A stretch of 64,000 nucleotides of DNA from Acidimicrobiia bacterium (lineage in GTDB: Bacteria; Actinomycetota; Acidimicrobiia; UBA2766). The position numbers were made by a program, and so were the translations under genes. Positions 3,004-44,372 of the stretch are shown here, one piece after another. The stretch lies in contig JAXLRM010000004.1 in NCBI GenBank assembly GCA_046331095.1, positions 68,316 to 132,315 of the forward strand, in the 5' to 3' direction. The notes beneath the pieces are model-generated. The model saw only the letters and a list, made by a program, of their open reading frames with translations. It had not been told where the DNA came from and did not search any database. The first letter of the stretch is position 1, and every line of letters begins with the position of its first letter.

Positions 3004-3009
3004 GCGGCC
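2878..3009 (+). repeat. direct repeat copy A (MFS gene 3' end)
   Basis: 132 nt covering the last 41 codons of the MFS gene, its TGA and 6 nt beyond. It recurs at 5873-6001 with 2 substitutions and one short divergent patch (3-nt length difference). Confidence 0.9.
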
Positions 3010-3026
3010 ACGGAGGCACCTGCGGT

Positions 3027-3797
3027 TCAGCGAGTGGAGTGCCGGGCGGCGACGCCGCGCAGGTCGCCGTCCGCGTCGAACCACGCCTCGACGGGCCCGA
3101 AGCCGCCCGCCGCGAGCGCCGCTGCGAGCACACGATCCTGGCTGCCGCCGACCTCGGTTAGGAGCCACCCGCCGTGGCGCAGGACCCGCGCCGCGGACTC
3201 GACGACGCGCCGCACCACGTCGAGGCCGTCCGCGCCGCCGTCGAGGCCGAGCGGGGGCTCGTGATCCCTGACGTCGGAGGGCAACAACGCGAGGTCCGGC
3301 GTCGGCACGTAGGGCGCCACCGCGGTGACGACGTCGAAGGCGTCCGAGCCGAGGGGCCGGCCGAGATCGCCGACGACGACCGGCACACCGTTGCTGCGGG
3401 CACAGGCGGCAGCACGTGTGCTCGCGTCGACGCCGACGACCGACGCCGTGGTCACGGCCGCCATGAGGTGGACAGCGACGGCACCGGAACCCGTGCAGAG
3501 ATCCGCCGCCCGCGGTCGGTTCCCGCACGCCGCCAGGAGCGCGGCTGCCCGACGGGCGAGGTCCTCGCTCTGGGGGCGTGGTACGTACACCCCCGGGTGG
3601 ACGCGGACGGTGTGGCCGCAGAACCGTGTCGTGCCGGTGATCCAGGCGAGGGGCTCACCGCGCTCGCGGCGGGAGACGAGTGCCTCGAGCACCGTGTCGT
3701 CGCGGGTGGCCGACGTCAGCGCGACCGCCTCTGCACGTGCGGCGACACAGCCCGCGGCGGCCAGCCGCGCCGCGACGAGGTCGAGGGTGAGCCTCAT
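3027..3797 (-). CDS. putative protein N5-glutamine methyltransferase (HemK/PrmC-like SAM methyltransferase)
   Basis: 256 aa from ATG 3797 (MRLTLDLVAARL..). SAM-binding motif DLCTGSGAVA. HemK-like core with VAPYVP in the position of NPPY. Confidence 0.8.
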   Translation of the reverse strand: MRLTLDLVAARLAAAGCVAARAEAVALTSATRDDTVLEALVSRRERGEPLAWITGTTRFCGHTVRVHPGVYVPRPQSEDLARRAAALLAACGNRPRAADLCTGSGAVAVHLMAAVTTASVVGVDASTRAAACARSNGVPVVVGDLGRPLGSDAFDVVTAVAPYVPTPDLALLPSDVRDHEPPLGLDGGADGLDVVRRVVESAARVLRHGGWLLTEVGGSQDRVLAAALAAGGFGPVEAWFDADGDLRGVAARHSTR

Positions 3798-7593: not shown

Positions 7594-9978
<2,385 letters not shown>

Positions 9979-9990
9979 GTGACGGGTGCT

Positions 9991-11220: not shown

Positions 11221-11374
11221 GGCGGTGTCCGGGGCGAGGGGGTTCCGGCAGTTCGCGCTCTGCGAACTGGACAAGTGTCCCACACGCGTCCCGGCGCCTC
11301 CCTCATCGCCCGGGGGATCCGACGAGGTCGACGCGGCTCGGGTGCTCGCCCGAGCCGGTCGCGGGGTTGCGCGG

Positions 11375-14300
11375 CTACTGCGGTGGCGCGAAGAGCTGGA
11401 TGCGGTAGACGATGCCGGCGATGACGAGGCGCAGCACGCCGTTGCGGTTGATCGAACCGCCTACGACGTCGATGCAGACTCCGGCGCACGCCTGGCCGGT
11501 GAAGCTGCCGGTCAATCTGTCGGTGCGGAATCTCACGGTGGCGGTGCCCTTGAGACCCACGGTGAAGAGGGTGAGGTCGACTGCTGCGGTGCCGTCGAAG
11601 GAGAAGGTGCCGTCGGAGTAGACCGACCCGCTGACGCTGCCGTCGACGGGGCCGAGGTCGACGGTCACCGGATCCGAGGCCGGGATGGCCATCCGCACCA
11701 CGCCGTTGTCGAGGCTGACGTCGTAGGTTGCCTGCGCGAACACGTAACCCAAGGCCGCGAGGCGGCCTCGCACCGATCCCTCGAACCTCCCGTCCGAGGC
11801 GACGGTGAGGGTGCGCAGCGACATCCCGATGCTGCCGGCGAGAACGTCGATGCCGATGGGCGAGTTCAGCGAGAGCCCGAGGACGCCGCCGGAGAGCGAC
11901 AGCGTGAACGACGGGTCGTTCGTGGTTTGCAGCGCCGGGCCGAGGTTGATGCCGGTCGCGGTGAAGGTGTAGCTCCATTCGGCGTCGCCGTCGATCGTGA
12001 AGTTCGGCAGGTCGATCGGGTCGCCGACCGGCAGGTACAGGCGGCCGCCGTTCACTCTCACCCCGAGTGTGCTGAGCGAGGCACCGGTCTTGCGGACCCG
12101 GATCGAGGCGTTGCGGATGCTGAGAGCGTCGGGCCCGATCCGTGTGGTCGAGGCGGCGACGTCGAAGGTGCCGTCCGAGGAGATGGTGAACGCGTCGACC
12201 GTGAGGGTCGCGAGGCCGGGGATGGCAACCGTCGGCTTGTTGAACCGCGTCGTGCCGGTGACGCGCAGGCGGAACACGCCGCCCTGGCGCTCGAAGATGA
12301 GCCTGCCGTCGAGGTCGAGCGCCCTCAGGTCGAGGTGGGTCGACGCCAGCGTGAGGCTGAACTCGCCGGTCGTGTCGATGTTGACACCGGGCACGGTGAG
12401 CGTGCCCAGGTTCGTGATCGTCAGCGACGACGGGCCGACCTGGAGCTGTATGCCGGTGCCGTTGGCCCCGACGTGGAGGTTGAACGACGGCAGCGCCAGC
12501 GAGAACTGCGACACGGTCACGGTCTTCGCAGTCACCGATGCGTCGAAGTGGCCGTCGGTGCCGATCGAGAAGGTGTTGACGCTGAAGGACGTGACGCCCG
12601 CCCAGGCGAGAGTGACGTCGGTTGCCGTGAACGAGATCACGGCGGGGGAGCCGAGGCGGCTCAGCGTGAACGTGCCGCTGATCGAGAGCGCCGAGCCCGG
12701 CGGGCCGAGGCGGAGCGAGCCGGCGCTGACCGTGAGCGAGCCGCGCAGGGTCGTGTCGAGGCTGCCGCTGAGTGCGAGGTTGTCTGCGATGCCGGGGACG
12801 TCGACGCGGGAGTTCACGGCGATGGCGGCTGTCGTGGGTGTGAACGCCATCGTCACCCCGCCTTCGAAGCGCCAGCCGCCGAAGGGGATGTTCGGTGAAC
12901 CGTTCAAGGTGAGGGCGAGCGATCCCGTCGGCCCCGCGGCGGCGAGCACGAGAGCGCCGTCGACGTCGAGCGAGGACCCGAGGAAGTTGAAGCGGGCGTC
13001 CACGGTCATCGAGGTGGCGAGGACCGTGCGGGTGATCGTGGCGAGAGGCGGTCTCGGGTTGCCCGTCGTCAGGCGGGTCACGTTGAAGCCCTTGATGCCG
13101 AGCGACGACGCCGTCAGGGCGAGGTTCCCGGTGCCGGCGCTGCTGATCGAGCCCGAGATCCCGACGCCGGTGGCGACGCCGGGGATGTCCGCGGCCCCAG
13201 TGGCTGCCAAGCTGGCCGATGTCGTGCCGACCACGAGTGAGAGGCTGCCCCGCACCGCCACCGGCCCGAACGCCAGGGACCGGCCCGACTGCAGGGCCAC
13301 CGTCAGCGTGCCGGTCGGACCGCCGCTGCCGATGGCAAGGTTGCCGTCCACGTCGAGGTTCGCGCCGAGGAAGGACATCCCGGTGTCGACGACCATGCGG
13401 ACCGCGCCGGCGTTGCCGACGACCCGGAACGTGCCGTCGCGCAGAGTGAAGCCGAACAGCGACAGCGAGCTGATGTCGAGGGAGATGTCGATCGTGCCGT
13501 CGGAGGCGATCGTGCCGGTGGCGTGCGCGCTCCCCTTGCCCGTCGCGGCCGACAGCCATGACGGGAAGCCGACGGTGCCGTCGAACGACAGCGTCGCCAC
13601 GAGGGTGCCGCCGCTGCGGGTCAGGCCGAGGACGAATCCCGTCGAGATGTCGAAGCCGGCGAGGGTCGGCCCGCCGCCGTCGAAAGTGACTGCGAGCGAT
13701 CCGGTCAGGTCGGGGTTCAGCGTCCCGTGCACCCGCGCCGCTGCGCCCAGGATGTCGGCCCTGCCGTCGACGCCGACGCCGAGGTGGCCGTCGGTCTGGA
13801 CGACGTCGATCGAGGCGTCGCTGATCGTGACACCGCCGAGCGGTCCGATCTGGGCGACCTCGGCGTGTCCGACGAGGTCGGGCAGTCCGCCGCCCGACGG
13901 CGGAGTCACGGCGATGCGGAAGGCCGCGTCGTCCACGAGGCCTTCGATGTCGAGGCGTGTGCCGAGCTCGATGCCTCCCTTGCGCAGCAGCGGGTCGGCC
14001 GAGGACGGGTCGTAGCCGGGCGAAACCGCACGGAACGTGGCGTCGGCACCGGCGACGCCTCCGATGATGGGCGGCAGGCCCAAGCGGGCCAGCACGTCGT
14101 CGACATCGGCTGCGTCGATGCTCGTCGTCGCCGTGGCGCGGGGCAGGTCGACGGTGCCGTCACGGCCCAGGGTCGGCTCCACGTCGAGGTCGAAGCGGGT
14201 GCTGAGCCCGATCAGGGGCAGCTCGCCACGGACCTGGGTCTTCTGGTCGCTGCTTGTGACGACGGCCCTGCCGAAGGGCACGCTCAGGAGCGTGCCGTCG

Positions 14301-17300
14301 AAGACGCCTTCGAGGTAGGCCGCGGCGGAGATGTCGTTGAAGGCGTCGGCGAGGGCGTTGCCGACCCCGATCGGCGAGATCCGCTCGACCGCGCCGAAGT
14401 CGTAACGGAAGACGTCGCCGAAGCCGGGGACGAAGAGCTGTACCGAGGTGGGCGAGGTTGTCCGACCGAGGTGGTCCGCAATGGCGCTCACCCAGTCGGG
14501 CATGTCGGCGATGTCCGCGGGGACCTGAAGGTTCAGCGTCGACAGCAGCCCGAGGGGATCGGTCAGCAGCTCGGGCAGGAGCAGTCGGCCGGTGAGCAGG
14601 ATCCCGCCGTGGCCGACGATGTCGAGGTAGTGCTGCTCGGTCCGGATCGGGATCCGGTTCGGGTCGACGGACGCATTCGGGTCCTCCCAGAGCTTCTGGA
14701 CGTGTGCGTCGACGAGGGCAGGGTTGTCGGCTGCGATGACGAGACCGGTCATCTGGCCGACCTCGAAGTCGAGCCAACGCAGGCCTCCGCGCAGCTCGAT
14801 CGCCCACGCGCCACTCCACGGGTCGATCGTCGGCACACCCGAGCCGCCGAAGAGTCCCTCGATGACCCCGCCGATGGGCAGCTCGAAGGTCATGCCGAGA
14901 TGGTCCTCGAAGCCGAGCGACATGAGCTCGCAGGCCGCCCCTCCGATGACGGGGATGACCATGCCGCATAGCTGCGTGCCGATGTCGGCGATGCTCGTGT
15001 CGAAGCCGAAACCGAGCCCGTCCTTGGTGATGATCGCCTCGACCTCGTGCTGGGGCTCTCCGAAGGGGATGCCGAGGATGACCGGCTGCAGCATGCCGCG
15101 CAGGTGGAACGACGGGTCGAACTGGGACCAGAACCCCGCTCCCGCCTCGCGGACCGCGTCACGCACGACGCCGAACAGCGCCGCGATCGCCTCGCCGCCG
15201 GCGCCGAGCTGTTGGGCGAAGGCGACGTAGTCGGCGTGGGTGAACACGGCCGAGAGGTCGAAGTCGTCGACCAGATCACTCCCGGTGTTGAGCAGGTCGG
15301 CGACGAACATCCGCGCCGCGCGGCCTGCAGCGGCCGGGTCGGCGGGCAGGGCACCGCCGCCCATGAGAGCGATGGCACGCGAGGTCAGGAACTCGCGTGT
15401 GACGACCTGGCCGTCCTCCGCCCCCGAAACGAGACCGTCTCCGTTGGTGTCGAGCAGCAGGCGGGCGAGCGGCCGCTCGTGGTCGCCTTGGAGGCCGGTC
15501 GCGAGGGCGCCGAGGCTGGCGTCGAAGAAGTCCTGGCCGACTTCGAGGCTGCCCGAGGCGGCCCTTTGTACGAACGTGGCGACGCCGAGGCCGAAGCCGG
15601 GGAGGATGCCTTTGGTGTCCAGGCTCGCCTCGAGCGTCGCGTGGGCGGGCAGGAGGAAGCCGAGCGGGTTCCCCGGCTGGGGGGTCTCGAACGCGAAGTC
15701 GAACTTCGGCTCGAGCGGTTCGCTGAGGTCCATGAGCAGGGCGGCGCCCGCGAAGTCCATGCCCCAAGCGGCGATGTTTCCGCTGCCGATGAACTTGACG
15801 CCCTGGCGACCGGGGATCAGCCCGACGTTCATCCCGAGTGTGACGTCGCCGGTGACGATGCCGGGCGCCATGGCGTGGGTGAGCTTGCCCGAGAGCGCCA
15901 TCGTGAACCCGTCGTCCCAGGTGAACGACCCGGTCTGCACCGCGGGTTCCACCTTCTCCCGGATCGTGTCGTCGTTGATCGGGAAGTCCGTTTCGAAGGC
16001 GGGGTCGTGGAGGATCTCCATCGGGCGCTGCGGGTCGGGGAATGCCGGCCCACCGAAGGCCAGGCCGCCCTCCACTCCTGAGAGCATGACGCCGCCGAGG
16101 AGGCCGCCGTCGAGTGGGATCGCGAGAGGAACGAGCACCTGGGCGAGGATCGGCCCGTACTGGGTGACCACGAGGTCGATCCCGGCACCCATGCCTTCGT
16201 ACTCGAACTGGCCGAAGACACGGCCGTAGAAGACCGTCTCGGGCTGTTCGCCCGGGGCGGGGTCGCCGTCGACGCTGATCGTCTTCAACTCGAGCCCGCC
16301 GCCGACCTCGAAGCCGGGCACGAGCTCGAACGGCTCGACACCCATCTTGGCGCCGGTGAGGTTCGTGATCGGGAACTCGCCCCGCGCCAGCTTGCCGAGG
16401 TCGACCTCGAGCCCGTCGACCGATGCCGAGATCGGCCACGTGTCGTTCGCCTCGATCCCGCCGGAGAATGTGATCACGAACCCGGCGAGGTCGGTGAGCG
16501 GGATGCCTTCTGGCGGGATGTCGGTGAGGTCGACGTTCGGGAAGCGGATCCCGAAGTCGTCGATGCGTAGAGGCAACCAGTCGGGCAGGCCGAAGTGCTC
16601 GTCGTCGGGGACGTCGAGGTTGAAGAAGAAGCCGGGCAGGACCCGCGGCACGAGGTCGGCGCCGATAGCGAAGTTGCCGACCTCGCCTCCCCAGCCGGCG
16701 AGGGCGTCGAAGTCCTCGTCGAACTCGACTCTCGCGGATCCGTCACAGGGTGGATCCTCGTCGGCTTCGCACGGCCGCCCGCCGAAGGTGACCAGCGGTT
16801 GTCCGGGCGCAGGGGCGAAGTTGATCCCGACGTTGGTGCCGACGACGCGCATGAACTCGCCGAAGGCGATCTCGACGCGGTCGACGCCGGCACCGGTGAA
16901 GGTCGGGCCCGTGATCGTGAACCGCCACTGCCCGTCGACGGCGATCCCGAGGCCGAAGTCGAGCTCGGCGCCCTCGAAGGACACGTTGTCGCCGAGGGAA
17001 GCCGAGAGCGAGAAGGTGCCGTCCAGGTCGAGGCTCGCGCCGGCGGGTGTGATGCCGAGGGAGCCGCACACGTCGATCGCGGCCTCGCCCCGTATGTCGT
17101 CGAGGCCACCGAGGACCGACAGCGATCCGCAGGCGTCGTTGACCCAAGCGCCGTTCTGGTAGGCGCCGAGGGTGAGCTGCGCGCCCAGTGTCACGTCGCC
17201 CACCCTGAGGTCGTCGAAGCCGAGGGTGATCGGGCCCAGGTCCCACGGGCGGACCTTGCCCTCGCTCAGCGAGTCGACCGCGATCGAGAACGTGAAGGTG

Positions 17301-20300
17301 TTGTCCTCAGTCGGGCTCGACGGTGTGACCGCCGCGCCGCCGATGCCGAGGACAGGCGTGAAGGGGAGCCCGGCCATCGCCGTGAAGTCGACGCTGCCGG
17401 TGACGGTGACCTCGAAGGTGTCGAGGTTCCCCCAGTCGGGGAAGTTCAGGGACACGCCGGTCACGTCGAACGGGACGATGCCGCCGAGGCCGATCGTCTG
17501 CAGGAGACCTGCCGAGGTGACTTCGACCCCGGAGGCGCCGAAGGTGCCGTCGCGTTCGAGTGCCAGATCGGTGAAGGTCACGCCGAGTCCGTCGAGGCCC
17601 CGCAGGGCCCCCGTCGCGGTTGCGGCGGTGAAGACCGGCCCTGTCGCTGCAGGACCGAGGTGCAGGTCGACGTCGGAGATGGTGAAGTCGATGGCGCCGG
17701 CGATGCTGCCTGTGACGGTGCCTGCGTGCAGGGACAGGTTTCCGGTTGAGTCGAGCGTGCCCGTCACGGCGTCGGCGCGGGCGCTGCCTGCGGGCACGGT
17801 TCCCGGTGGCGCCGTTTCGGGGAAGAGAACGACCGTGGCGGCGTTAACGGCGACCGAGCCTGTGGCGGTGCCGGTCGCGACGTCGCCGTCGACGGTGGCG
17901 TCGAGAGTGACGCCGCCGAGGTAGGCGATCGGCAGGGTCAGCTCGTCGACGGCGACATGGCCGGTGGTCTGCACCCGGGTGTGGTCGAAGGAGCCTGCGA
18001 GCCCGACCGTGACGGCGCCTCCGGCGGCACCGAGATCGGCATCGAGGTTGGCCGTGGCCGAGCCGTCGAAGCGGTCCGGCGCGAGGGTGGCGCCGAAGGC
18101 GAGATCGGCGACGCCGAAGCCTGCCCAGGCGTAGTCGTGGCCGGCCTCGCCTGTGCCGCTCAGGGTCCAGACGCCGTTGTCGTAGGCGCCGACCATGTCG
18201 ATGAGGGCCGTGTTCGCGGCGTCGGTGAGGCCCGGCAGGGTGAGGGTGCCTTCGAGTGATGCCGCGATGTCGATGTCGGTCTGGAACTGCGGATCGACGC
18301 TGAGCGTGAACGTGCTGTCCCATCCGAGCGCGAGCGGGTCGAGCGTGGCGTCGAGGTGGGCATCCACGGTGCCCTCGGCCGCGGGACGCAGGTACGACGC
18401 CGGCGCGGCGGCGAGGTCGGCCGCACGCAGTCGCGCCGGACCGCCGTTCGCGGCGAGGATCACCGACACGTCGACCGCCACGGGTCCCGTCACGTCGAGT
18501 CCTGCAACCCCTGCGACACTGCCGGTGCCGCCGACGGTCGTCGTCGCGTCCACGTCGAGGCGCAGCCCGCTCTCGTCGGCGACATAGAAGCCGGTGGTGT
18601 CGACACCGACGACGAGCGTGACGACGAGGTCTGCGCTCGAGTCGAAGTCGGCGTCGAGACCGAGGTTCGACGCGAGGCCGTCGAGGAAGCCGGTGGCGTC
18701 GTCGTTGAACTCGTCGCCGGTGAAGCCCAGGGACTCGGCGAGGTCGGCGAGTGTCGCCGTGTAGCGGACCTGGATGATGTCCGCGGCGGTGGGCGGCGCC
18801 GGGTGCCCGCAGGCGCCTCCCGCGACCCAGTCGATCGTGACGCCCTGTGCCTCCAGTTGGCCGCACAGGACGTCGAGGTCGTCGTCGAGGCCGGAGAACG
18901 GGCTGTCGAGGCGGTCGAGGTCGTCCTGGGGCTCGTACAACCCGGCGAGCTCGTCGGTGAGGCCGGGCAGCTCGAACGGGGAAGTCGTGTTGCGGTCGAG
19001 GTCGTACTCGGCGCCCCAGTCGTCGAGGACGTCGAAGAGTTGGCTGCCGCCGGTTTCGAGCTGCTCGGCCACGGTTCCCGACCCGCTCGGGCCGTCGTCG
19101 TCGACGATCGTGACCGTGGCGGACTCGCCCTCGGGCACCGTCACGTTCCCGGCGGCCGTGATCGTCGCGCTGAACTGCTCGTCGTCCTCGTCGATCTCGT
19201 CGCCGACGATCGGGACGGCGAAGATCTTCGTCGTCTCACCGGGGGCGAACACGACGTCGCCGGCGGCCTCGACGTAGTCGGGACCCGCCAGAGCGGTCCC
19301 GTCGTGGGTGCTCGCGGCGACCGTCACGACCTTGGCCGATTCCTGGGGCAGGAGCCCGAGGACAGGATCGACGAGACGCACGGCGAGGGCGGCGTCGACA
19401 GTCCCGCCGTCGCCCTCGGTGATCGAGATGCCGTCGATCACGGCCATGGGAGCGGCGTCGTCGTCGACGATCGTCATCGCCGCGGTCGCCTCGCCTGCCG
19501 TGACGGTGAAGGTTTCGTCGTCCTCGTCGATCGTGTCGGCGGTGATCGTCACGGCCACGAACGCGCTCGAGTCCGGGTTCACGGTCACGGTCGCGGGGGT
19601 GGACGCCGTCGAGTAGTCGAGCGTTGCCTGTGCCGTGCCCGCCGTCACCTGGAACGGGACCGTGACGGGAACGGTGCCGCCGATTCCCTGCACCTGGACC
19701 TGGAACGTGCCGACGGCCTCGGGGGTCGACTGGGGGGAGATCGTGACGGTCGGCGGAACGGGCGGGACGCCCGCGCGAAGCGTGACCGTGCCGTTGGGCG
19801 GGTCGTAGACGGCGCTGAGCGTGCCCTCCACCGAGGCGAAGGTGCCCGACAGCGTGGCGGCGTCGATGACCACGAACTCGTCGGCAGCGCCCGGCGTGTA
19901 CCCGTCGGCGAGTGTCGCCGCGAGGGTCCCGTCGATGGTGGCAGCGCCCGAGACGTCGAGGCGGCCATGGGTCGTTCCGGGGTCGGTGCCTGCGATCGTG
20001 AATTCCAGACGGCCCGTTCCGCTCTGGGTGAAGGGACCGCCGACCTGCAGTCGGGATGCCGACCCGATCGCGAGGGTGCCGCCCGAGATGGTGAGTGCTG
20101 CGGTGGTGTTCCCGCCGACGGGGGTGTTGTCGAGGTCGAGGGTGCCGCCCTGCACGGTGATGTGCGCGGGGGTGAACGCGCTGGAGCCGGTGACTCCTAC
20201 GGTGGCGCCGGTCACGAACATCGTTCCCGCACCGGTGACGGGGCCTGTGAGGTCCAGGGTGCCTTGGGAGAAGTCGAGGTTGGCGTCGGCGATCCATGCG

Positions 20301-23300
20301 CCGGAGCCGCCGCTGCCGGCAGCGCCACCGACGATCAGGAGGCCGGCGTTTGCGTGCACGGTGCCGTCGTTGACGAAGACGGCGCCGTTGGCGGCCAGGC
20401 TCGACACGCCTGCGGTGGTCTTGGTGATGGTGGCGCCGGGTCGGTTCGTGATCCGTGGTGCCGACGAGCCCGAGGCCGAGTAGGCGGTCTCGCCGGTCCC
20501 GATGTCGAAGGTGGCGAGGTTGTCGAGGTGGCCGGTGGCGTCTGCGGTCTCGACGAGGCGGATCTCGCCGCTGGTGGCGCCGCTGTCCCAGGTGAGCGTC
20601 CCCTCGTTGACGAGGTGGCGTCCCAACGTCACGTCGTTGGTGATCGAGCCCGTCGCCGACGACCCGAGACGCAGGTCGCCGCTGCCCGCAAGCGCGCCGC
20701 CCGACCACGCGAACTGGTCCTGCACCGCAACCGCACCGCTGCCGTCCAACGTCCCGCCTGAAACAGCGAGCTGCGCGATCGTGGAGTCCCCGGCGATCGA
20801 GAGCGTCCCGCCGGAGACGGTTACGGCTCCTTCGGCGGTCACGGCACCGACGGACGAGGTGCCGGTCGAGTGCTCGACCGCGGAGCCCTCGGGGATGCAC
20901 ACAGCGTCGCTCGGTCCCGGCAAGTTATCCGTGCTCCAGTTGGCGGCGGTGTCCCAGCGGCCGTCGCCGGCAGAGCCGTCCCAGGAGACCGTGCAACTGC
21001 TGAGGGCCGTGCCGAGGATCACGTCGCCGTTGGCCACGTCGTAGTCGACATCCAGGTCGCCTTCCACAGCGGCGAAGGTGCCGCTGAGGCTGGACGCGTC
21101 GATGACGGTGAAGGAATCCGCGGGACCGGGTGTGTAGCCGTTGGCGAGCGTGGAGACGATCCTGCCGTCGACGGTCGCGGCGCCGGAGGCGACGATGCGA
21201 CCGAACCCGACCCCCGGCACGGGGCCCGACACCTCGATCTCGAGCAGGCCCGCGTCACCCGCCAACGGAGCTCCGGTTTGGGTGAAATCGCCAGCGAGGG
21301 CGATCTGCGCGGACTTCAGTGTGAGGGCACCGCTGTTGGTCAGGTTGCCACCGAGGCTCAGGTTCTTTCCCGCCAACAGGAGTTCCCCGTCGTTCACCGC
21401 AAGGTTGCGCAGTGCATCGGCACCGTTGTGGTCGAGGAAGTTGGCGCCGGGGCCCAGCAGCGAGATGTCGGCGGCGTTGGTGACGACGTTCGCGTTCCTG
21501 AGGCGAAGGGTCGCGCCGTCGGCGACGCTCCAGGTCCCGCCGTCCAGCGTGGTCCCCGACACGTTGGTGACGTCACTCTCGAGCTTGAGGGTGCCTTCGG
21601 CCGCTGTGATGGTGCCGTTGTTGGTGAATTCGACGCCGCTGCTGCCGAGGGTGGCGGTGGTGGTGGCGGTCTTGGTGATGGTGGCGCCGGGTTGGTTGGT
21701 GATCTTGGGTGCGGTGCCGCCGTCGAACCACTGGGCCCCGTAGCCGCTGGTGATCGTGAACGTGGCGGCGTTGTCGAGGTGGCCGCCGCTGTGGAGGATG
21801 AGGTTGCCGTCGGACCAGGCGAGTGAGCCCGTATTGAGGAGGTGGCGTTCGAGGTATTTGGTGTTGCCGGTCGAGATCGACGCTGTCGCGGCCGGGCCGA
21901 CCGTGAGCGTGCCCGCGCCCGAGACGGTCCCGTTCGTCCAGTTGAACTGGCCGCCGACGGTCACGTTCCCGGCACCACCGAGCACACCCCCCGAGACGTT
22001 CAGAACGGCGATCGTGGACTCCCCGGCGATCGCCAGCGTCCCACCGGAGACGGTCAGCGTCCCCCGTACGTTGACTCCACCGACCGTGGAGTCGCCGGAG
22101 GCGTGGTTGACGGTCGCCCCTTCGGGGATGCAGGCCACGTCGGAGGCGCTCGGCAGGGCGTCCGTGCTCCAGTTGGCAGCGGTGTCCCACCGACCGTTGC
22201 CGCCACCGCCGTCCCAGGTGACGGTGCAGGCGGGTCCGCCGCCGGTCAGCGAGAGGACGACGTCGCCGTTCGCGCTGTCGTAGCTCGGGACGAGAGTCCC
22301 CTCGGCAGTGAACGTGCCGGCAATGCCGGCGGCGTCGATGACGGTGAAGGCATCGGTCGCACCGGGCGTGAAGCCGCCGACGAGGGTGGACGACAGCGTT
22401 CCGGCGAGGTTGGCGCTGCCATTGACGACGAGGCGGCCGTACCCGTGGCCGCCGACGTTGCCGTACAGCTCCACCTCGAGCCGCCCCGACGGCGCCTGGG
22501 TGTAGTCGCCGTGGATGTCGATCTCGGAGTCCCCGCCGAGGTGGATCGTGCCGCTGTTGGACGACGCCCCCCAGATCGTGAGGGTGCCGCCCTGCATGAC
22601 GAGGGTGCCGTCAACTCGGAGGGCGTTGACGCCGGAACTGCCCGAGTAGTGGTTCACCGTCACGCCCGCGGGGATGCAGGCGCTGTCGTCGCCGCTCGGG
22701 ATCTCCCCGCCGCTCCAGTTGGCGGCGTCGTGCCAGTTCGACGTCGCACCGATGTACACCGTCGTGCAGCCGGCGAACGGGTCGGTGGCGCCGAGCACGG
22801 CGTTTCCGGCGGCGGCGTCGTAGTGGACGAACAGGCCGCCCTCGATGGATGCGAACGGTCCCGAGAGCGCTGCTGCGTCCACGATCGTGAACTCGTCCGA
22901 CGGCGCAGGCACGAACGGTGCCACGACGTTGGCAGCGAGGGTTCCGCCGAGGTATGCGGTGCCGGACACGGTGAGCGAGCCGTGACCCTGACCCGGCGTC
23001 GTGGCGGCCACGTCGACCTCGAGACGTCCGTTGCCGGCGTAGAAGTCGCCGGGGACGGTGACGACGGAGCCCGCGCCGAGCTTCAGGGTGGCGTTGTTCC
23101 CGAGGTCGCCCGGCACCGCCAGGTCCCGGCCGCCCGCGAGGGTGAGCGTGCCCGAGTTGGTGGCGAAGTGACGCAAAGCGTCCGCACCGTCCTGATCCAG
23201 GAACCTGGCGTTCGGTCCCAGCAGGGAGATGTCGGCGCTGTTGGTGACGATGTCGGCGGCGAGGAGCTTCAGCGTGGCGTTGTCGGCGACCCGCCACGTG

Positions 23301-24121
23301 CCCACGGTGAGGTCGGATCCGCCGAAGCCGGTCAGCCACGCGTCGATCCAGAGGGTCCCGCCCGCGGCCTCGACCGTGCCGTCGTTGCCGAACTGGCTGC
23401 CCGTGTCGCCCAGTTTCGCGGCGCCGGCGCCGGTCTTGCGGATCGTGGCACCGGCCCGGTTGGTGATCTCGGGGATCGTGCTGCCCGGGCCACGGTACGC
23501 GGTGTCGTCGCCGGAGATCGTGAAGGTGCCGGCGTTGTCGAGGTGTGGATGGCGGTCGCCGTCGGAGCGCATGACGATGTCGCCGTCGCTCCAGGTGAGC
23601 GAACCGGCGTTCCTCAGGTGGCGCCCGAGGGTCTTGGCCGCCGGTTGGGAGATCGATGCCGTAACCGTCGACGTGAGGTCCAGGGTTCCAGATCCTGCGA
23701 GTTCTCCTCCCTTCCAGGTGAAGCCGCCGGTCACCGTGAGGGTTCCGGCGCCCGTGAGCGTGCCGCCGTCGATGGTGAGGTCAGTGAAGAGCGAGTCGTC
23801 CTCGATGGCGGCGCCGATCGCGAGCGACCCTCCGCCGATGTAGAGCTTGCCGTTCACCTCAGCGGCCGAGATCGACGTCGTGCCGGTGGTGAACATCACC
23901 GTGTCGCCGCCGCCGATGCACACCACGTCGCCGGTGCCGGGCACCGTGTCGTCGGACCAGTTGAGGGCGTCGTGCCACGAGTCGGTGCCGGCACCCCTGT
24001 CCCACCACGTGTTGCAGTCGTCCACCGGACCCGCTGCGGCAGGCGTCGGGACCGGAAGACCGACAAGTGCCAAGGCGGCCGCCGCAATCAGAGCGACGGC
24101 TGTGAGCGCGCGTCTACCCAT
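11375..24121 (-). CDS. giant secreted repeat protein (4,248 aa): signal peptide, four beta-helix-like modules, two Calx-beta domains, long unassigned C-terminal region
   Basis: Uninterrupted frame from ATG 24121 (MGRRALTAVALIAAAALALVGLPVPTPAAAG, n-h-c signal peptide) to TAG 11375-11377. G/T/A/V/D-rich beta-type composition throughout. Internal repeats and Calx-beta motifs are readable. Confidence 0.9.
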   Translation of the reverse strand: MGRRALTAVALIAAAALALVGLPVPTPAAAGPVDDCNTWWDRGAGTDSWHDALNWSDDTVPGTGDVVCIGGGDTVMFTTGTTSISAAEVNGKLYIGGGSLAIGAAIEDDSLFTDLTIDGGTLTGAGTLTVTGGFTWKGGELAGSGTLDLTSTVTASISQPAAKTLGRHLRNAGSLTWSDGDIVMRSDGDRHPHLDNAGTFTISGDDTAYRGPGSTIPEITNRAGATIRKTGAGAAKLGDTGSQFGNDGTVEAAGGTLWIDAWLTGFGGSDLTVGTWRVADNATLKLLAADIVTNSADISLLGPNARFLDQDGADALRHFATNSGTLTLAGGRDLAVPGDLGNNATLKLGAGSVVTVPGDFYAGNGRLEVDVAATTPGQGHGSLTVSGTAYLGGTLAANVVAPFVPAPSDEFTIVDAAALSGPFASIEGGLFVHYDAAAGNAVLGATDPFAGCTTVYIGATSNWHDAANWSGGEIPSGDDSACIPAGVTVNHYSGSSGVNALRVDGTLVMQGGTLTIWGASSNSGTIHLGGDSEIDIHGDYTQAPSGRLEVELYGNVGGHGYGRLVVNGSANLAGTLSSTLVGGFTPGATDAFTVIDAAGIAGTFTAEGTLVPSYDSANGDVVLSLTGGGPACTVTWDGGGGNGRWDTAANWSTDALPSASDVACIPEGATVNHASGDSTVGGVNVRGTLTVSGGTLAIAGESTIAVLNVSGGVLGGAGNVTVGGQFNWTNGTVSGAGTLTVGPAATASISTGNTKYLERHLLNTGSLAWSDGNLILHSGGHLDNAATFTITSGYGAQWFDGGTAPKITNQPGATITKTATTTATLGSSGVEFTNNGTITAAEGTLKLESDVTNVSGTTLDGGTWSVADGATLRLRNANVVTNAADISLLGPGANFLDHNGADALRNLAVNDGELLLAGKNLSLGGNLTNSGALTLKSAQIALAGDFTQTGAPLAGDAGLLEIEVSGPVPGVGFGRIVASGAATVDGRIVSTLANGYTPGPADSFTVIDASSLSGTFAAVEGDLDVDYDVANGDVILGTALSSCTVSWDGSAGDGRWDTAANWSTDNLPGPSDAVCIPEGSAVEHSTGTSSVGAVTAEGAVTVSGGTLSIAGDSTIAQLAVSGGTLDGSGAVAVQDQFAWSGGALAGSGDLRLGSSATGSITNDVTLGRHLVNEGTLTWDSGATSGEIRLVETADATGHLDNLATFDIGTGETAYSASGSSAPRITNRPGATITKTTAGVSSLAANGAVFVNDGTVHANAGLLIVGGAAGSGGSGAWIADANLDFSQGTLDLTGPVTGAGTMFVTGATVGVTGSSAFTPAHITVQGGTLDLDNTPVGGNTTAALTISGGTLAIGSASRLQVGGPFTQSGTGRLEFTIAGTDPGTTHGRLDVSGAATIDGTLAATLADGYTPGAADEFVVIDAATLSGTFASVEGTLSAVYDPPNGTVTLRAGVPPVPPTVTISPQSTPEAVGTFQVQVQGIGGTVPVTVPFQVTAGTAQATLDYSTASTPATVTVNPDSSAFVAVTITADTIDEDDETFTVTAGEATAAMTIVDDDAAPMAVIDGISITEGDGGTVDAALAVRLVDPVLGLLPQESAKVVTVAASTHDGTALAGPDYVEAAGDVVFAPGETTKIFAVPIVGDEIDEDDEQFSATITAAGNVTVPEGESATVTIVDDDGPSGSGTVAEQLETGGSQLFDVLDDWGAEYDLDRNTTSPFELPGLTDELAGLYEPQDDLDRLDSPFSGLDDDLDVLCGQLEAQGVTIDWVAGGACGHPAPPTAADIIQVRYTATLADLAESLGFTGDEFNDDATGFLDGLASNLGLDADFDSSADLVVTLVVGVDTTGFYVADESGLRLDVDATTTVGGTGSVAGVAGLDVTGPVAVDVSVILAANGGPARLRAADLAAAPASYLRPAAEGTVDAHLDATLDPLALGWDSTFTLSVDPQFQTDIDIAASLEGTLTLPGLTDAANTALIDMVGAYDNGVWTLSGTGEAGHDYAWAGFGVADLAFGATLAPDRFDGSATANLDADLGAAGGAVTVGLAGSFDHTRVQTTGHVAVDELTLPIAYLGGVTLDATVDGDVATGTATGSVAVNAATVVLFPETAPPGTVPAGSARADAVTGTLDSTGNLSLHAGTVTGSIAGAIDFTISDVDLHLGPAATGPVFTAATATGALRGLDGLGVTFTDLALERDGTFGASGVEVTSAGLLQTIGLGGIVPFDVTGVSLNFPDWGNLDTFEVTVTGSVDFTAMAGLPFTPVLGIGGAAVTPSSPTEDNTFTFSIAVDSLSEGKVRPWDLGPITLGFDDLRVGDVTLGAQLTLGAYQNGAWVNDACGSLSVLGGLDDIRGEAAIDVCGSLGITPAGASLDLDGTFSLSASLGDNVSFEGAELDFGLGIAVDGQWRFTITGPTFTGAGVDRVEIAFGEFMRVVGTNVGINFAPAPGQPLVTFGGRPCEADEDPPCDGSARVEFDEDFDALAGWGGEVGNFAIGADLVPRVLPGFFFNLDVPDDEHFGLPDWLPLRIDDFGIRFPNVDLTDIPPEGIPLTDLAGFVITFSGGIEANDTWPISASVDGLEVDLGKLARGEFPITNLTGAKMGVEPFELVPGFEVGGGLELKTISVDGDPAPGEQPETVFYGRVFGQFEYEGMGAGIDLVVTQYGPILAQVLVPLAIPLDGGLLGGVMLSGVEGGLAFGGPAFPDPQRPMEILHDPAFETDFPINDDTIREKVEPAVQTGSFTWDDGFTMALSGKLTHAMAPGIVTGDVTLGMNVGLIPGRQGVKFIGSGNIAAWGMDFAGAALLMDLSEPLEPKFDFAFETPQPGNPLGFLLPAHATLEASLDTKGILPGFGLGVATFVQRAASGSLEVGQDFFDASLGALATGLQGDHERPLARLLLDTNGDGLVSGAEDGQVVTREFLTSRAIALMGGGALPADPAAAGRAARMFVADLLNTGSDLVDDFDLSAVFTHADYVAFAQQLGAGGEAIAALFGVVRDAVREAGAGFWSQFDPSFHLRGMLQPVILGIPFGEPQHEVEAIITKDGLGFGFDTSIADIGTQLCGMVIPVIGGAACELMSLGFEDHLGMTFELPIGGVIEGLFGGSGVPTIDPWSGAWAIELRGGLRWLDFEVGQMTGLVIAADNPALVDAHVQKLWEDPNASVDPNRIPIRTEQHYLDIVGHGGILLTGRLLLPELLTDPLGLLSTLNLQVPADIADMPDWVSAIADHLGRTTSPTSVQLFVPGFGDVFRYDFGAVERISPIGVGNALADAFNDISAAAYLEGVFDGTLLSVPFGRAVVTSSDQKTQVRGELPLIGLSTRFDLDVEPTLGRDGTVDLPRATATTSIDAADVDDVLARLGLPPIIGGVAGADATFRAVSPGYDPSSADPLLRKGGIELGTRLDIEGLVDDAAFRIAVTPPSGGGLPDLVGHAEVAQIGPLGGVTISDASIDVVQTDGHLGVGVDGRADILGAAARVHGTLNPDLTGSLAVTFDGGGPTLAGFDISTGFVLGLTRSGGTLVATLSFDGTVGFPSWLSAATGKGSAHATGTIASDGTIDISLDISSLSLFGFTLRDGTFRVVGNAGAVRMVVDTGMSFLGANLDVDGNLAIGSGGPTGTLTVALQSGRSLAFGPVAVRGSLSLVVGTTSASLAATGAADIPGVATGVGISGSISSAGTGNLALTASSLGIKGFNVTRLTTGNPRPPLATITRTVLATSMTVDARFNFLGSSLDVDGALVLAAAGPTGSLALTLNGSPNIPFGGWRFEGGVTMAFTPTTAAIAVNSRVDVPGIADNLALSGSLDTTLRGSLTVSAGSLRLGPPGSALSISGTFTLSRLGSPAVISFTATDVTLAWAGVTSFSVNTFSIGTDGHFDASVTAKTVTVSQFSLALPSFNLHVGANGTGIQLQVGPSSLTITNLGTLTVPGVNIDTTGEFSLTLASTHLDLRALDLDGRLIFERQGGVFRLRVTGTTRFNKPTVAIPGLATLTVDAFTISSDGTFDVAASTTRIGPDALSIRNASIRVRKTGASLSTLGVRVNGGRLYLPVGDPIDLPNFTIDGDAEWSYTFTATGINLGPALQTTNDPSFTLSLSGGVLGLSLNSPIGIDVLAGSIGMSLRTLTVASDGRFEGSVRGRLAALGYVFAQATYDVSLDNGVVRMAIPASDPVTVDLGPVDGSVSGSVYSDGTFSFDGTAAVDLTLFTVGLKGTATVRFRTDRLTGSFTGQACAGVCIDVVGGSINRNGVLRLVIAGIVYRIQLFAPPQ
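19085..19775 (-). other. two tandem Calx-beta domains inside the giant CDS
   Basis: Motifs ..TAGTAQATLDYS..VTVNPDSS..ITADTIDEDDETFTV..TIVDDD and ..HDGTALAGPDYVEAAGDVVFAPGETTKIFAVPIVGDEIDEDDEQFSA..TIVDDD match the Calx-beta pattern (G.A..G.DY..F.PGE..K...V..D...E..E.F). Confidence 0.75.
19776..24016 (-). repeat. four tandem protein-level modules inside the giant CDS
   Basis: Modules start at Cys codons 24016, 22768, 22226 and 20995 (CNTWWDRG.., CTTVYIGATSNWHDAANWS.., CTVTWDGGGGNGRWDTAANWS.., CTVSWDGSAGDGRWDTAANWS..). Each ends ..G(H/F)G(R/S)L.V.G.A...G.L...L..G(Y/F)(T/V)P...D.F.VIDA..L.G.F..(V/I)EG. Confidence 0.75.
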
Positions 24122-24290
24122 GACGATCCTCCGGGGCAGGAAGGGAACCGGCGTCGGCCTGTGAGTCGGGCTCGGGCAGTGAGGGGTCGGCCGTGCCGTC
24201 GAAGAGGCGCGCCAGCGCGCTTTGTTCGGATTGTGGTTCCTCGGCCCCTGTGTCCCCGTGCGTCCCCATGGAACCGACTCTGCACCACGC

Positions 24291-24309
24291 CACTTGCGGT
24301 TCACTTGCG
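24291..24309 (+). promoter_or_regulatory. direct repeat CACTTGCG x2 with 11-nt phasing upstream of the SARP gene (candidate SARP box)
   Basis: cacttgcg at 24291-24298 and 24302-24309. TCGACGC/TTGACGC follow at 24311 and 24323. SARPs are known to bind short direct repeats spaced about one helical turn apart. The assignment here is inference only. Confidence 0.25.
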
Positions 24310-24351
24310 ATCGACGCGATGATTGACGCTCCGACGCTGGGACCAGCTCCG

Positions 24352-27300
24352 ATGGACGTGCGGATCCTCGGGTCGCTCGAGGCGACCGTGAACGGCCGGA
24401 CGGTCGACCTCGGCTTGCGGCAGGCCCGGGTCCTCGTAGCGGCCCTCGCCCTGCAACCCAACACCCCTGTACACAACGCACGGCTGGCCGAGGCGTTGTG
24501 GCCCGCCGGCCCACCTGCGCGTTGGGAAGCCACCGTGCAGAGCCACGTGTCGCGACTGCGGCGCGCCCTGGAGCCGGACCGGCCGCCGCGGACGCCGTCG
24601 CGGCGGATCCGCACCCACGGCGACGCGTACTCCCTCCAGGTCGCCGAGGACGAGCTCGACTCTCTCCGCTTCGAGCGCCTCGCCACCGAGGGCCGCGCGG
24701 CTCTCGCCCGCGAGGACCACGCGCGCGCCGACGAGCTCCTCGGTCGGGCTCTGCACGAATGGCGCGGGCCCGTACTCGCCGACCTCGGTGACCCCAGCAT
24801 CCTCGGACCCGCCGTGGTCCGGCTCGAGGAGATGCGGCTGCTCGCAGCCGAGGAGTGTGCCGAGGCGGCGATCGCGTTGGGCGAGCATCGCCGTGCCGTA
24901 CTCGAGCTCGAGACGCTGATCGCCGCCGACCCGCTGCGAGAGCGGAGCTGGGAGCTGCTCCTGCTGTCCTTGTATCGCAGCGGCCGCCAATCCGAGGCGC
25001 TGCGCAGGTACCGGGAGGTGCGGACACTCCTGGTCGAGGAGCTGGGGGTGGAGCCCGGGCCGGCGCTGTCGGCGATCGAGGGCGCGATCCTGCGCCAGGC
25101 CGAGGAGCTGGCACCCAAGCCGGAGCTCGCGACGGCTGCCGCGGTGACGGTCGACGTGGCGCCTCCGGTGTGGCTGCAGGCGCCCGCCGACACATTCGTG
25201 GGCCGCGGAGACGAGCTCGCCTCGATCCGACGGGCCTACGAGTCGGCCGTGGGCGGTGACCGGCGGTTCGCCCTAGTGGAGGGCGAACCAGGTATCGGCA
25301 AGACCCGCCTCTTGCGCGAAGCGTGTCGCGATCTGCGCGACCGCGGGGTCCTGGTCGTGGGCGGGAGATGCGCCGAGGAACCCTTGCACGTCCTGGAGCC
25401 GTTCGCAGAGGCGGTCGAGCGCGTGGCGCTGGCACAGAGCGACCGGCTGGCACGGGATGCTCCCGGGGACGTGGCGGCGCTCGCGGGTCTGGTCCCGGAG
25501 CTCTCACGCCACGCGCCGCCGCCGCCCGCCGCAGACGCCGATGCCCACCGGTACATGCTGTTCCGGGCAGTCAGCAAACTGCTCGACTCCGGGGTACGCG
25601 AGCGACCCGTCGTGCTCGTCCTCGACGATCTGCACTGGGCGGCAGGCCCCGCGTTGAGACTGCTCTCGCATGTCGTGCGCGACGACGACAGGGGGTCCCT
25701 CCTCGTGCTCGGTGCCGCGCGTGACACCGAACCGAACCCGGGCTTGGCCGCGCTCTTGGCGGACCTCAACAGCGAGCGGCGACTCGACCGGATCAAGCTC
25801 GCCGGTCTCGGCCCCGACGAGGTCCGCACGCTGGCGTCGGCACGTGGTGCCGACGTCGCTGCCGCGAACCTGTTCTCGATGACCGAGGGCAACCCGTTCT
25901 ACGTCGAGGAGCTCGTCCGTCACGTGGCCGAGAGTGGCGGCGTGCTCGACGCGGGGACGCTGCCGGATTCGGTGCGCGACACGATCGCGCGGCGGCTGCT
26001 GCGGCTGCCCGAGAACGTGCGCCGCATCCTGGGGTTCGCGGCCGTCGCGGTCGGCGAGTTCCGCCTCGACGTCGTCGCGCTCGCAGCCGGGGTCGGAATC
26101 GAGGAAGCCGACGACGCCCTGGCGGTGGCGGTGCGCGCGGGGGCGGTTCGCGAACTGCCCGCGCGCGCGGGTGCCTACCGCTTCGCCCATGCGCTCATCC
26201 GTGCGGTACTACGCGAGGCACTCGGCGCCGCCCGCCGGGCGCGGGCGCACCGCCGCCTCGGCGAGGTCCTCGCCGACCTGGGTGGGGGCGAGAGCGAGGT
26301 CGCCCACCACCTTCTGGCGGCGGCCGAGGACAACAGCGACGTGGGTCCGGGCGTGTACGCCTCCCTCGGTGCCGCAGCGACGGCAGTCCAGCGTTTCGCG
26401 TACGACGATGCGGTCACGGTGCTGCAGACGGCTTGGGACACCTTGGGTTCCCAGACGTCGCCGGATGCGCACCTCGTGTGCCGGGTCGCGGTCGCGCTCG
26501 CAGACGCCCTGCGACGATCCGGTACCTACGAGGAGCGGGCAACGCTGCTCGAGGACGCCTGGCGTCATGCGGCAGTCACCGGCGACGCGGAGCTCGCAGC
26601 CGAGGTCGTGATCGAAGGCTGCGCCGGCACCGTCGATCCCGCCGCCGCGTGGATCACCCGTGCCGAGGCGACGGTCGACCGCCTCGATGAGACGTCACCG
26701 CGGCGCGTGCTGCTCACGGCGCTGTTGAGCTACGCGTGGTCCTCCGAGCCGGGCGACCGAGCCCGGCGCATGGCCGAGTGGGCGCTTGCCCGGGCTCCCG
26801 CGCTGGAGCCGTCCGAACGGCGAGCGGTGATGGAGTTCGCGTTCCTGGCCGTGCTGGCGTCGAGCCCGATCGAGCGCGTCGTCGACCTTGCGCGCACCGG
26901 TCTGGCCGCGGCCCGAGTCGGCGGCAGCGTGTTCGAGCTGATCGAGGCGCTCAGCGTCGTGCGCATCGCCTACTTGGCCTCCGGGGACATCGCCGCGTCC
27001 GATGAGGTCGCCCGCGAGTACGAGGACCGGGTGCGGATGGTGCGGGCGCCGCGGTTCATGGCTGGTGTCGAGCAGCGCCGCGGGATGCGGGCGTTGCTCG
27101 CCGGCAGATTCGTGGAGGCCGAAGCCCACGGCGCCGAGGCAGTCTCGCTGCAGCCGCTCCCGGAGTTCGTCGAGGGATACGCCGCCCAGATCTTCGCGCT
27201 GCGCCTCGAGCAGGGCCGCCTCGGCGAGGTACGGGATGCGGTCGAGTCATTCGCCGCCGCTGATCAGAGGCCGGCTTGGACCATCGGGTACAGCACCCTG

Positions 27301-29534: not shown

Positions 29535-29613
29535 GGCATGGTTCTACTCGCTCGGCGAGGCGCCCCTCGTGAGCGATGAACCCCGGCGCCCCGACGCGGA
29601 GTTGGGGCTCGAG

Positions 29614-44267: not shown

Positions 44268-44372
44268 CGCGGCGACACTAACGCGAGCCCTGACGCGAGC
44301 CCGTGAGATCTCAGGTTCACGGGACCCGAGGCCGGTGCCTGCCAGAATCGGGCGGCGACCACGGGGGAGCTG

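Follow-up and report, generated by a model that had tools for sequence, protein, structure and literature searches.

Giant LPXTG adhesins of Gram-positive bacteria, such as those of the Ebh, SasG, and Rib type, are anchored by sortase and combine a Sec signal with a distal binding region and a long β-rich body, all displayed outside the cell. SARP promoters classically have heptamers repeated in tandem, with an 11-nt period, immediately before the −10 element. In Planctomycetota, the products of 'giant genes' have been treated as putatively Ca-binding or located at the cell surface (Reva & Tummler, 2008; Kohn et al., 2016; summarised in PMC12673574). Here, we analyze a giant gene in a 64,000-nt stretch of an Acidimicrobiia bacterium assembly (GCA_046331095.1, contig JAXLRM010000004.1, positions 68,316 to 132,315; hereafter, the window), together with homologous proteins and loci designated by P and L numbers. 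The C-terminal body of its product appears to be an undescribed, widely distributed module of giant extracellular proteins with a conserved regulator pairing, and we favor, with slightly better than even confidence, a reading in which the gene encodes a Sec-exported, Ca2+-binding giant adhesin-type protein of the surface or matrix that is switched on by a neighboring SARP activator (Table 1).

The preliminary description of the window had proposed a 12,747-nt open reading frame (ORF) from ATG 24121 encoding 4,248 aa, and this frame proved to be an intact gene: it is preceded by GGAGGA, its GC content at third codon positions (GC3) is uniform, and P0001, an NCBI protein of 4,248 aa from a metagenome-assembled genome (MAG) on a 1.34-Mb contig, is identical to its product. 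In each 200-codon block downstream of this ATG, GC3 was 0.85–0.95 and GC2 was 0.41–0.62, the coding signature of a ~70% GC genome. The open frame on the minus strand extends from 25507 to 11375, or 4,710 codons if counted from GTG 25507, but we rejected this start because the upstream part is Arg/Pro-rich, runs antisense to the SARP gene, and has GC1/2/3 values of 0.79/0.84/0.55. Tandem Repeats Finder detected no DNA tandem repeats with a period >15 nt. The repeats of the protein are too diverged at the DNA level for collapse during assembly to be likely, and we rejected both an ORF artefact and an assembly collapse on the basis of the lack of long tandem repeats, the uniform GC3, the identical NCBI product, and homologues that are collinear over >2,900 aa. 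Two outcomes that the preliminary description had named as telling against it, a full-length match to a characterised family and a repeat collapse, were both looked at, and no full-length family match emerged. Pairwise dN/dS against three homologues was ~0.37–0.65. Thus, the giant gene is real and under purifying selection.

The product had been estimated at roughly 0.4 MDa, with an order of signal peptide, four Cys-anchored modules, and two Calx-β domains; its mass is 427 kDa, and self-tiling BLAST and Pfam searches bore out the order. The protein has a pI of 4.1 and 18 cysteines in 9 close pairs, a pattern that would be expected of an extracellular protein. Cleavage of the signal peptide between AAA and G was placed by the AxA rule rather than computed. 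The n-region contains RR, but we judged Tat export unlikely (a judgement, not a computation), as RRALT fits the Tat motif poorly and the cargo would have a mass of 427 kDa. The head modules that follow are 35–53% identical among themselves, and each opens with a Cys pair spaced 30–32 residues apart in the pattern C..W..G...W....NWS....P...D..CI. The Pfam G8 model scored 34 bits against the whole protein (gathering cutoff 22.9) and 14–19 bits, below threshold, against each module alone, a weak match to only the first ~50 profile positions. This module also occurs stand-alone in 300–700-aa proteins of many bacteria, some with PEP-CTERM and some carrying the Joint Genome Institute (JGI) name 'fibronectin-binding autotransporter adhesin'. 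The Calx-β domains account for only ~5% of the length of the giant protein, and the NCBI name therefore describes a minor part of it. PDB sequence searches with the whole protein, one head module, and a profile of the core described below returned Calx-β matches only, or none.

The remaining ~2,550 residues (aa 1700–4248), in which the preliminary description could name no motif, indeed matched nothing in Pfam, NCBIfam, or PDB sequences, whether searched singly or in profile form; the same was true of 11 diverse relatives, in which no Pfam model touched the core. BLAST mapping showed that aa ~1715–3440 is common to all members, and the signature motifs of this core are LPFTPV, GWGG, FPIxNL, YGPxLA, FDPSFxLRGxLQPxILGIPFGEP, WAIELRGG, HGGILLTGRLLLPELLTDP, and SPGYDPSS. 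Within it, DTNGDGLVSGAE looks like a near-canonical EF-hand-type Ca2+ loop when compared by eye with the PROSITE PS00018 pattern. The tail beyond the core is shortened in P0013 and P0010 and swapped for helical repeats in P0003, P0004, P0005, and P0007. The C-termini of the latter four consist of ~400 aa of Ala/Leu-rich helical repeats (..DALxAxGYTDxxDLAxALDxA..) that end in ..EFLGG, for example at ~20140–21364 of L002, and P0004 is tagged PF10098 in precomputed annotation. A sub-region corresponding to aa ~1830–2390 is duplicated in P0012, and the meander repeats are multiplied in P0014; thus, copy number varies around a constant single-copy center.

A word-indexed search recovered 13 relatives, from Acidimicrobiia or Ilumatobacter MAGs and one outlier, and a second such search with a core profile added just one further protein. 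An exhaustive HMMER search with this profile (1,170 positions, aa 2250–3440, built from the window protein and five homologues) returned 352 cluster representatives at E ≤ 1e-3, including 185 at E ≤ 1e-30. Nearly all of these proteins are 2,000–7,900 aa in length, and most give a single match spanning all 1,170 profile positions; the window protein also gives a full-length profile match and is 30–78% identical to members. Their source names are 'hypothetical protein' or are taken from a minor domain (HYR, Calx-β). A scan of GTDB species genomes placed members in Acidimicrobiia, Ilumatobacteraceae, and Acidimicrobiaceae, and in MAGs of Pirellulaceae and Planctomycetaceae. The domains flanking the core include Calx-β, HYR, Beta_helix, RTX, Big_9/13, dockerin, laminin-G, FG-GAP, cadherin, CARDB, and PPC, and several members carry Lipase_3, thioesterase, NHL, or LCAT domains (P0010, P0011, and one more among those with lipase, thioesterase, or LCAT). 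The flanks of the module are interchangeable and always extracellular in type. Among 11 members drawn from both phyla, Gly and Pro make up most of the invariant columns, Asp, Phe, Thr, Trp, and Leu account for a few, and His, Cys, Ser, Glu, and Lys for none, a pattern that favors a structural or binding role over a catalytic one. In the literature searched, we found no description of the core, of its actinobacterial branch, or of the sortase signals and regulator pairing of the family. The suggestion of the preliminary description that the gene may belong to an undescribed surface or extracellular system therefore stands with respect to the core; the gene is not an orphan, with relatives in at least 352 clusters, and 'system' overstates what is conserved, which is a two-gene module.

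The preliminary description had also held that the route of export could not be read from the locus. We see no export puzzle, because a classical Sec signal peptide suffices and needs no locus-encoded machinery. Pfam and NCBIfam scans of ~45 window ORFs revealed no genes for type I secretion (T1SS), two-partner secretion (TPS), autotransporter, ESX, or sortase components, and 8 homologous loci contained none; LPXTG, RTX repeats, and a C-terminal hydrophobic anchor are all absent from the giant protein, in agreement with the earlier account. The protein stops 5 residues past the last strand of the module (..IAGIVYRIQLFAPPQ, then stop), and the equivalent stretch of P0006 (..VAGIRAPFQIWNPGTVP..) runs on into an HYR domain. 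After the module, many actinobacterial relatives continue through HYR and Ig-like domains and a Pro-rich linker to LP[RAES]TG, a hydrophobic stretch, and an Arg-rich tail, and the combination of LPXTG, transmembrane segment, and basic tail is present in P0006, P0008, P0013, P0016, P0021, P0025, P0028, and P0058. These ends indicate that such relatives are sortase substrates, with a wall-proximal C-terminus and variable N-terminal heads pointing outward. P0002, which is 67% identical to the window protein, has the same anchorless end (..IAGLRYRVQIFDPPE, then stop) on two contigs with unrelated downstream context, and two planctomycetal members end much like the anchorless form; thus, this end is real rather than a truncation artefact. 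Planctomycetal members carry an N-terminal LExRxLL motif and have dockerin-like or RTX-like ends. The retention problem raised by the preliminary description is therefore genuine for the window protein and P0002, in which a signal is truly absent, but has an explanation in LPXTG for many relatives.

The neighboring SARP gene had been proposed as the only obvious partner of the giant gene, and comparison of loci strengthens this proposal. All 8 Acidimicrobiia loci that could be evaluated have a regulator next to the giant gene (L010, cut by a contig end, was left out of the count), and in 7 of these 8 it is of the STAND type, whereas the planctomycetal locus L007 has no such regulator neighbor. 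The conserved partner of the giant gene is thus a regulator, in a two-gene module that possibly includes a small upstream ORF (uORF).

The intergenic region between the SARP and giant genes of the window contains an operator-like box of the type TCGCAAG-N4-NCGCAAG, which occurs once in the 64-kb window compared to 0.04 chance matches expected. At the equivalent place in L002 (9811–9832, plus strand), and nowhere else in that locus, we found TCGCAAG-tgaa-TCGCAAG. The L002 counterpart of the −10-like hexamer is CAGGGT, and in both loci the box lies 10 nt from the hexamer and the hexamer 6–7 nt from the uORF ATG. L002 also has a uORF of equal length in the same arrangement (~9848–10003, plus strand; overlap ATGCGTAG); A[LI]xRLF[DE]GxADP is common to both uORF peptides, and where this block differs, it does so at third codon positions. 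At the sequence level, the window therefore has the features of a SARP promoter, namely an adjacent BTAD SARP gene and heptamers with an 11-nt period that abut a −10-like element. This arrangement suggests that the leader ORF may be SARP-activated, carried on a leaderless transcript, and translationally coupled to the giant gene. A 77-aa ORF upstream of P0013 in L003 is unrelated to the uORF. In L001 and L006, whose giant proteins are 48% and 34% identical, respectively, to the window protein, the palindrome TGAGTA-N6-TACTCA (L001, 9946–9967; L006, ~3306–3327) lies between the LuxR-type STAND gene and the giant gene. L005 has a direct repeat, CCTTGATCGAG-CCTTGATCGGG, with an 11-nt period at 9822–9845, just upstream of the apparent true start. 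The operator-like motifs fit the type of regulator present at SARP and LuxR loci, and we treat them as candidate sites. In L005, ATG 9864 opens a plausible signal peptide (METRVPRGLLLGIVVAVIV..), the called P0011 start at 10001 is probably too far downstream, and the P0011 gene appears to be split into parts of 2,279, 722, and 362 aa. At the other end of the giant gene, the stop codon and the next gene are only ~90 nt apart, with a GC-rich hairpin in between. A consensus terminator scan missed this hairpin for want of a T-run, but it looks like a terminator and suggests that the giant gene may be transcribed apart from the downstream acyl-CoA dehydrogenase gene.

In the reading that we favor, the SARP-STAND regulator would bind the TCGCAAG-N4-CCGCAAG heptamers 10 nt upstream of CAGAGT and activate a transcript that probably starts at the uORF ATG, and the overlap of the uORF stop with the giant-gene start would couple translation of the two frames. 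The 30-residue signal peptide would take the chain through SecYEG, and folding outside the cell would be oxidative and Ca2+-assisted, as the nine Cys pairs, the Calx-β domains, the EF-hand-like loop, and the pI of 4.1 suggest. The four passenger-like G8/β-helix modules would serve as distal binding heads and the 2,550-residue amphipathic β-meander as a non-enzymatic structural body. In many relatives, LPXTG and sortase would fix the C-terminus to peptidoglycan, giving a polarity in which the body is proximal and the heads are distal; the window protein and P0002, which end after the module, would either be released or stay non-covalently bound within a matrix or envelope layer. In addition to the sequence features of the protein, the sortase-type ends of relatives, the predicted amphipathic meander, and the regulator pairing with its operator-like motifs, this reading is supported by accessory domains that are exclusively of extracellular or adhesive type, including Calx-β, HYR, cadherin, laminin-G, and lipase, and by the recurrence of the head module in stand-alone proteins annotated as adhesins.

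Several observations weigh against this reading. Its chief weakness is that aa 2250–3440 contain no internal repeats and form a single-copy, highly conserved center of ~1,200 residues, which a passive stalk would not need, so that a more specific role is likely. Neither structural model described below yielded a Foldseek match in the PDB that would support an adhesin stalk, and the AlphaFold2 (AF2) predictions, built from alignments of 11–14 sequences only, are of moderate confidence (pTM 0.34–0.37). The β-helix assignment of the heads leans on sub-threshold G8 matches and source-given names, and the scheme of promoter, leaderless transcript, and uORF stands on two loci.

We modeled two segments of the body using AF2. 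For aa 1700–2890 (14-sequence alignment), the mean predicted local distance difference test score (pLDDT) was 74 and the predicted template modeling score (pTM) was 0.37, and the model consists of a small α/β domain followed by ~50 consecutive long β-strands, mostly joined by tight turns, and then helices. For aa 2975–4174 (11 sequences), with a pLDDT of 62 and a pTM of 0.34, mixed α/β structure to ~aa 3270 gives way to ~900 residues of unbroken β-meander. The predicted strands are amphipathic, with L/V/A/G/F/I on one side and T/D/G/S/A on the other, and the mean even/odd hydropathy difference was 2.2–2.5 compared to 1.4 ± 0.16 for within-strand shuffles. Foldseek searches of the PDB with aa 1700–2890 returned SusC/RagA, FimD, LptD, ApoB100, the Deinococcus SDBC complex, and VDAC, all with template modeling (TM) scores ≤0.11; with aa 2975–4174, four ApoB100 entries came first (E = 2.7e-8 to 1.3e-4, prob 0.77–1.0), with TM scores of 0.12–0.16 and root-mean-square deviations (rmsd) >50 Å. 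We did not accept any of these matches as a fold assignment, as they are to generic large antiparallel sheets or barrels at TM ≤ 0.16.

The ApoB100 matches for both segments (together with LptD for aa 1700–2890), the strongly amphipathic character of the predicted strands, and the Lipase_3, thioesterase, or LCAT heads of three relatives raise the possibility that the body is a lipid- or hydrophobic-surface-binding β-belt like that of ApoB100, with one hydrophobic face that would wrap extracellular lipid, wax, hydrocarbon, or membrane material and with heads, namely lipase and LCAT domains in relatives and glycan-binding β-helices in the window protein, that would dock or process it. We consider this alternative unlikely. 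Matches with TM scores of 0.05–0.16 and rmsd values >50 Å say only that both structures are long antiparallel meanders, and the pLDDT of the segment that gave the top matches is 62. The hydrophobic face is rich in Ala and Gly (126 of ~470 positions), which suits packing of sheet on sheet better than contact with lipid. Moreover, the giant protein has no Vitellogenin_N domain of large lipid transfer proteins (LLTPs), AsmA domain, or TamB domain, and most heads in the family are adhesive rather than lipolytic. A more specific proposal, in which the ~2,500-residue module would be a bacterial counterpart of the ApoB β-belt, a secreted or wall-tethered single-layer amphipathic sheet that wraps lipid or other hydrophobic material outside the cell, is fed or targeted by the lipase or LCAT heads of relatives or by glycan-binding heads here, and is induced by a ligand-sensing STAND activator, strikes us as quite improbable; if a β-belt were present, it would imply an extracellular 'lipoprotein-particle' system in Acidimicrobiia and Planctomycetota.

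The core might alternatively self-assemble into a cell-covering sheet, in the manner of a surface-layer (S-layer) or sheath building block, held non-covalently here and covalently, through LPXTG, in relatives. A conserved, single-copy, non-enzymatic core in an acidic protein with Ca2+-binding features would suit such a role, and the Deinococcus SDBC S-layer complex is among the weak Foldseek matches (ranks 12–13), at a TM score of ~0.09. S-layer proteins, however, are usually constitutive and very highly expressed rather than placed under a dedicated STAND activator, the heads of this family are hypervariable with copy numbers that differ among members, and a dN/dS of ~0.4 fits adhesins better; we therefore regard this alternative as quite unlikely. 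We regard as very unlikely a further alternative, in which the protein would serve in delivery or attack, for example as a carrier of polymorphic toxins or as a Rhs/teneurin-like shell; the meander would then enclose or display an effector, with the variable termini as payloads. In its favor, the termini do differ among members while the core stays constant, Foldseek gave a weak match to Teneurin-2 (E = 1.5e-3), and eCIS_core and type VI secretion (T6SS) Tse3-like genes lie at L005 36–5391, a few kb upstream of P0011. Against it, neither the window protein nor its neighbors contain RHS/YD repeats or domains of a toxin, immunity, protease, or cleavage type, no conserved small immunity-like gene lies downstream, the variable parts are adhesive N-terminal domains, and the window protein has no C-terminal payload.

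The ~45 scanned ORFs of the window are otherwise metabolic or housekeeping in type, encoding a major facilitator superfamily (MFS) transporter, nitronate monooxygenase, hemerythrin, a UvrA paralogue, acyl-CoA dehydrogenases, hydrolases, a two-component system, a P-type ATPase, PPK2, and SulP. The UvrA paralogue (7594–9978, plus strand) has 794 aa, is shorter than canonical UvrA, scores 669 bits compared to an equivalog cutoff of 730, and may be of the class IIb or drug-resistance type. On the minus strand, 125–1342 encodes a ScyD/ScyE-family protein, 27852–29543 is a 563-aa ORF with no family match that is convergent with the SARP gene, and 41376–44300 is a 974-aa ORF whose sole match is to the SEC-C metal-binding motif.

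Table 1. Features of the giant gene and its regulatory region, with positions in the window, and regulators at homologous loci.
Feature	Position	Strand	Description
Giant gene	11375..24121	(-)	ATG 24121 to TAG 11375; 4,248 codons plus TAG; 12.7 kb
Sec-type signal peptide	24032..24121	(-)	aa 1–30, MGRRALTAVALIAAAALALVGLPVPTPAAA followed by GP after the cleavage site; sole hydrophobic or transmembrane-like segment (aa 2–30; Kyte–Doolittle, KD, 2.42)
Four N-terminal head modules	19763..24016	(-)	aa 36–444, 445–631 (short, 187 aa), 632–1042, and 1043–1453 (self-tiling BLAST)
Two Calx-β domains	19052..19762	(-)	~aa 1466–1556 and 1596–1677; E = 5e-22; 78.6 bits vs cutoff 27
Conserved family core	13802..19024	(-)	~aa 1700–3440; small α/β domain, predicted amphipathic antiparallel β-meander, mixed α/β insert at ~aa 2840–3270
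EF-hand-like Ca2+ loop	15416..15451	(-)	aa 2891–2902, DTNGDGLVSGAE; kept family-wide in Acidimicrobiia and Planctomycetota; consensus LxLDxxGxGxVSxxED
Tail	11378..13801	(-)	aa 3441–4248; ~six degenerate 125–130-aa β-meander repeats and a conserved C-terminal cap (CxxxC, ..LRLVIAGIVYRIQLFAPPQ, then stop) with no sorting signal after it
Candidate SARP box	24293..24310	(-)	TCGCAAG-tgaa-CCGCAAG; tandem heptamers, 11-nt period, in the SARP/giant-gene intergenic region
−10-like hexamer	24277..24282	(-)	CAGAGT; putative; 10 nt past the box and 7 nt before the uORF ATG
uORF	24114..24269	(-)	51 codons (MGTHGD...ALARLFDGTADP...PEDRHG, then stop); TAG overlaps the giant-gene ATG (ATGGGTAG)
Shine-Dalgarno sequence	24127..24132	(-)	GGAGGA; 5 nt before ATG 24121, inside the uORF; kept in L002
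GC-rich hairpin	11334..11357	(-)	cGGCTCGGG-cgagca-CCCGAGCCg; 18 nt past the giant-gene stop; perfect 8–9 bp, no U-tract
SARP-family STAND regulator	24352..27843	(+)	Divergent; OmpR-type winged helix-turn-helix (wHTH), BTAD (E = 2e-43), and AAA_16; 1,163 aa from MDVRILGSLE; true start ATG 24352
Regulator in L002 (P0003)			Divergent orthologue of the window SARP, 64% identical over its full length
Regulators in L003/L004 (P0013)			BTAD-STAND gene directly downstream and a 1,744-aa BTAD-kinase-STAND gene
Regulator in L005 (P0011)			BTAD and AAA_16
Regulator in L014			SARP-like ORFs directly downstream, frameshifted
Regulator in L001 (P0006)			AAA_16-TPR-GerE (LuxR-type STAND) directly upstream; 32% identical to the L006 regulator
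Regulator in L006 (P0008)			AAA_16-GerE (LuxR-type STAND) directly upstream
Regulator in L011			Divergent MmyB-like XRE regulator

Acidimicrobiia and Planctomycetota abound in soil and water, most of them are uncultured, and the roles of their giant genes are a long-standing blank. The core shared by these phyla, ~1,750 aa alone and ~2,500 aa with its tail, has no database model and recurs in hundreds of proteins of 2–8 thousand residues (kaa) that follow a modular logic of head, body, and anchor. The regulator pairing and the recognisable candidate operator provide an experimental handle, and the predicted meander is an attractive structural target. If the core binds lipids or self-assembles, it would represent a new type of surface machinery in bacteria; otherwise, it would represent a new adhesin stalk architecture.

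Compared to giant LPXTG adhesins, the window protein is similar in being a giant, probably extracellular protein with a Sec signal, a proposed distal binding region, and a long β-rich body, and many of its relatives have the canonical end of LPXTG, hydrophobic stretch, and basic residues. The window protein itself, however, lacks the sorting signal that defines that class. Its body also differs from a string of Ig-like repeats, comprising a ~1,750-aa single-copy core and 125-aa meander repeats for which there is no Pfam model, and the family extends to diderm Planctomycetota, with dockerin or RTX ends. The heads may be related to autotransporter-passenger and G8 modules, in that their N-cap, W..G...W....NW.....P...D.V.I, matches the start of the G8 model, but single modules score below the G8 gathering threshold, and they occur in an actinobacterial host as four tandem copies fused to a foreign body. 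Unlike autotransporters and TPS substrates, the window protein has no β-barrel translocator or TPS domain, and there is no TpsB partner in the window. It differs from RTX/T1SS substrates in having an N-terminal signal peptide and no HemolysinCabind match; the window contains no T1SS genes, and the nearby ABC protein is only the UvrA paralogue. It resembles ApoB100 and other LLTPs in the very long, continuous, amphipathic antiparallel β-sheet that is predicted, for which ApoB100 was the top Foldseek match at aa 2975–4174, but differs in the TM scores of ≤0.16, ~8% identity, the lack of an LLTP N-terminal (Vitellogenin_N) domain, and the small-residue inner face. AsmA/TamB proteins and Rhs/YD shells are more distant, with no AsmA, DUF490, or RHS_repeat match at E ≤ 0.1 and a Foldseek TM score of 0.07 for Teneurin.

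The same core occurs in planctomycetal proteins of 4–8 kaa that carry LExRxLL, linking the window protein to the planctomycetal 'giant genes'; that literature, as summarised in PMC12673574, defines a size class rather than this domain. The regulator of the window corresponds to SARP activators of the AfsR/ActII-ORF4/DnrI type in its wHTH, BTAD, and AAA_16 domains and in the 11-nt-period heptamers upstream of a −10-like element. It differs from these activators in its target, which here appears to be one gene for a giant surface protein instead of a gene cluster for secondary metabolites.

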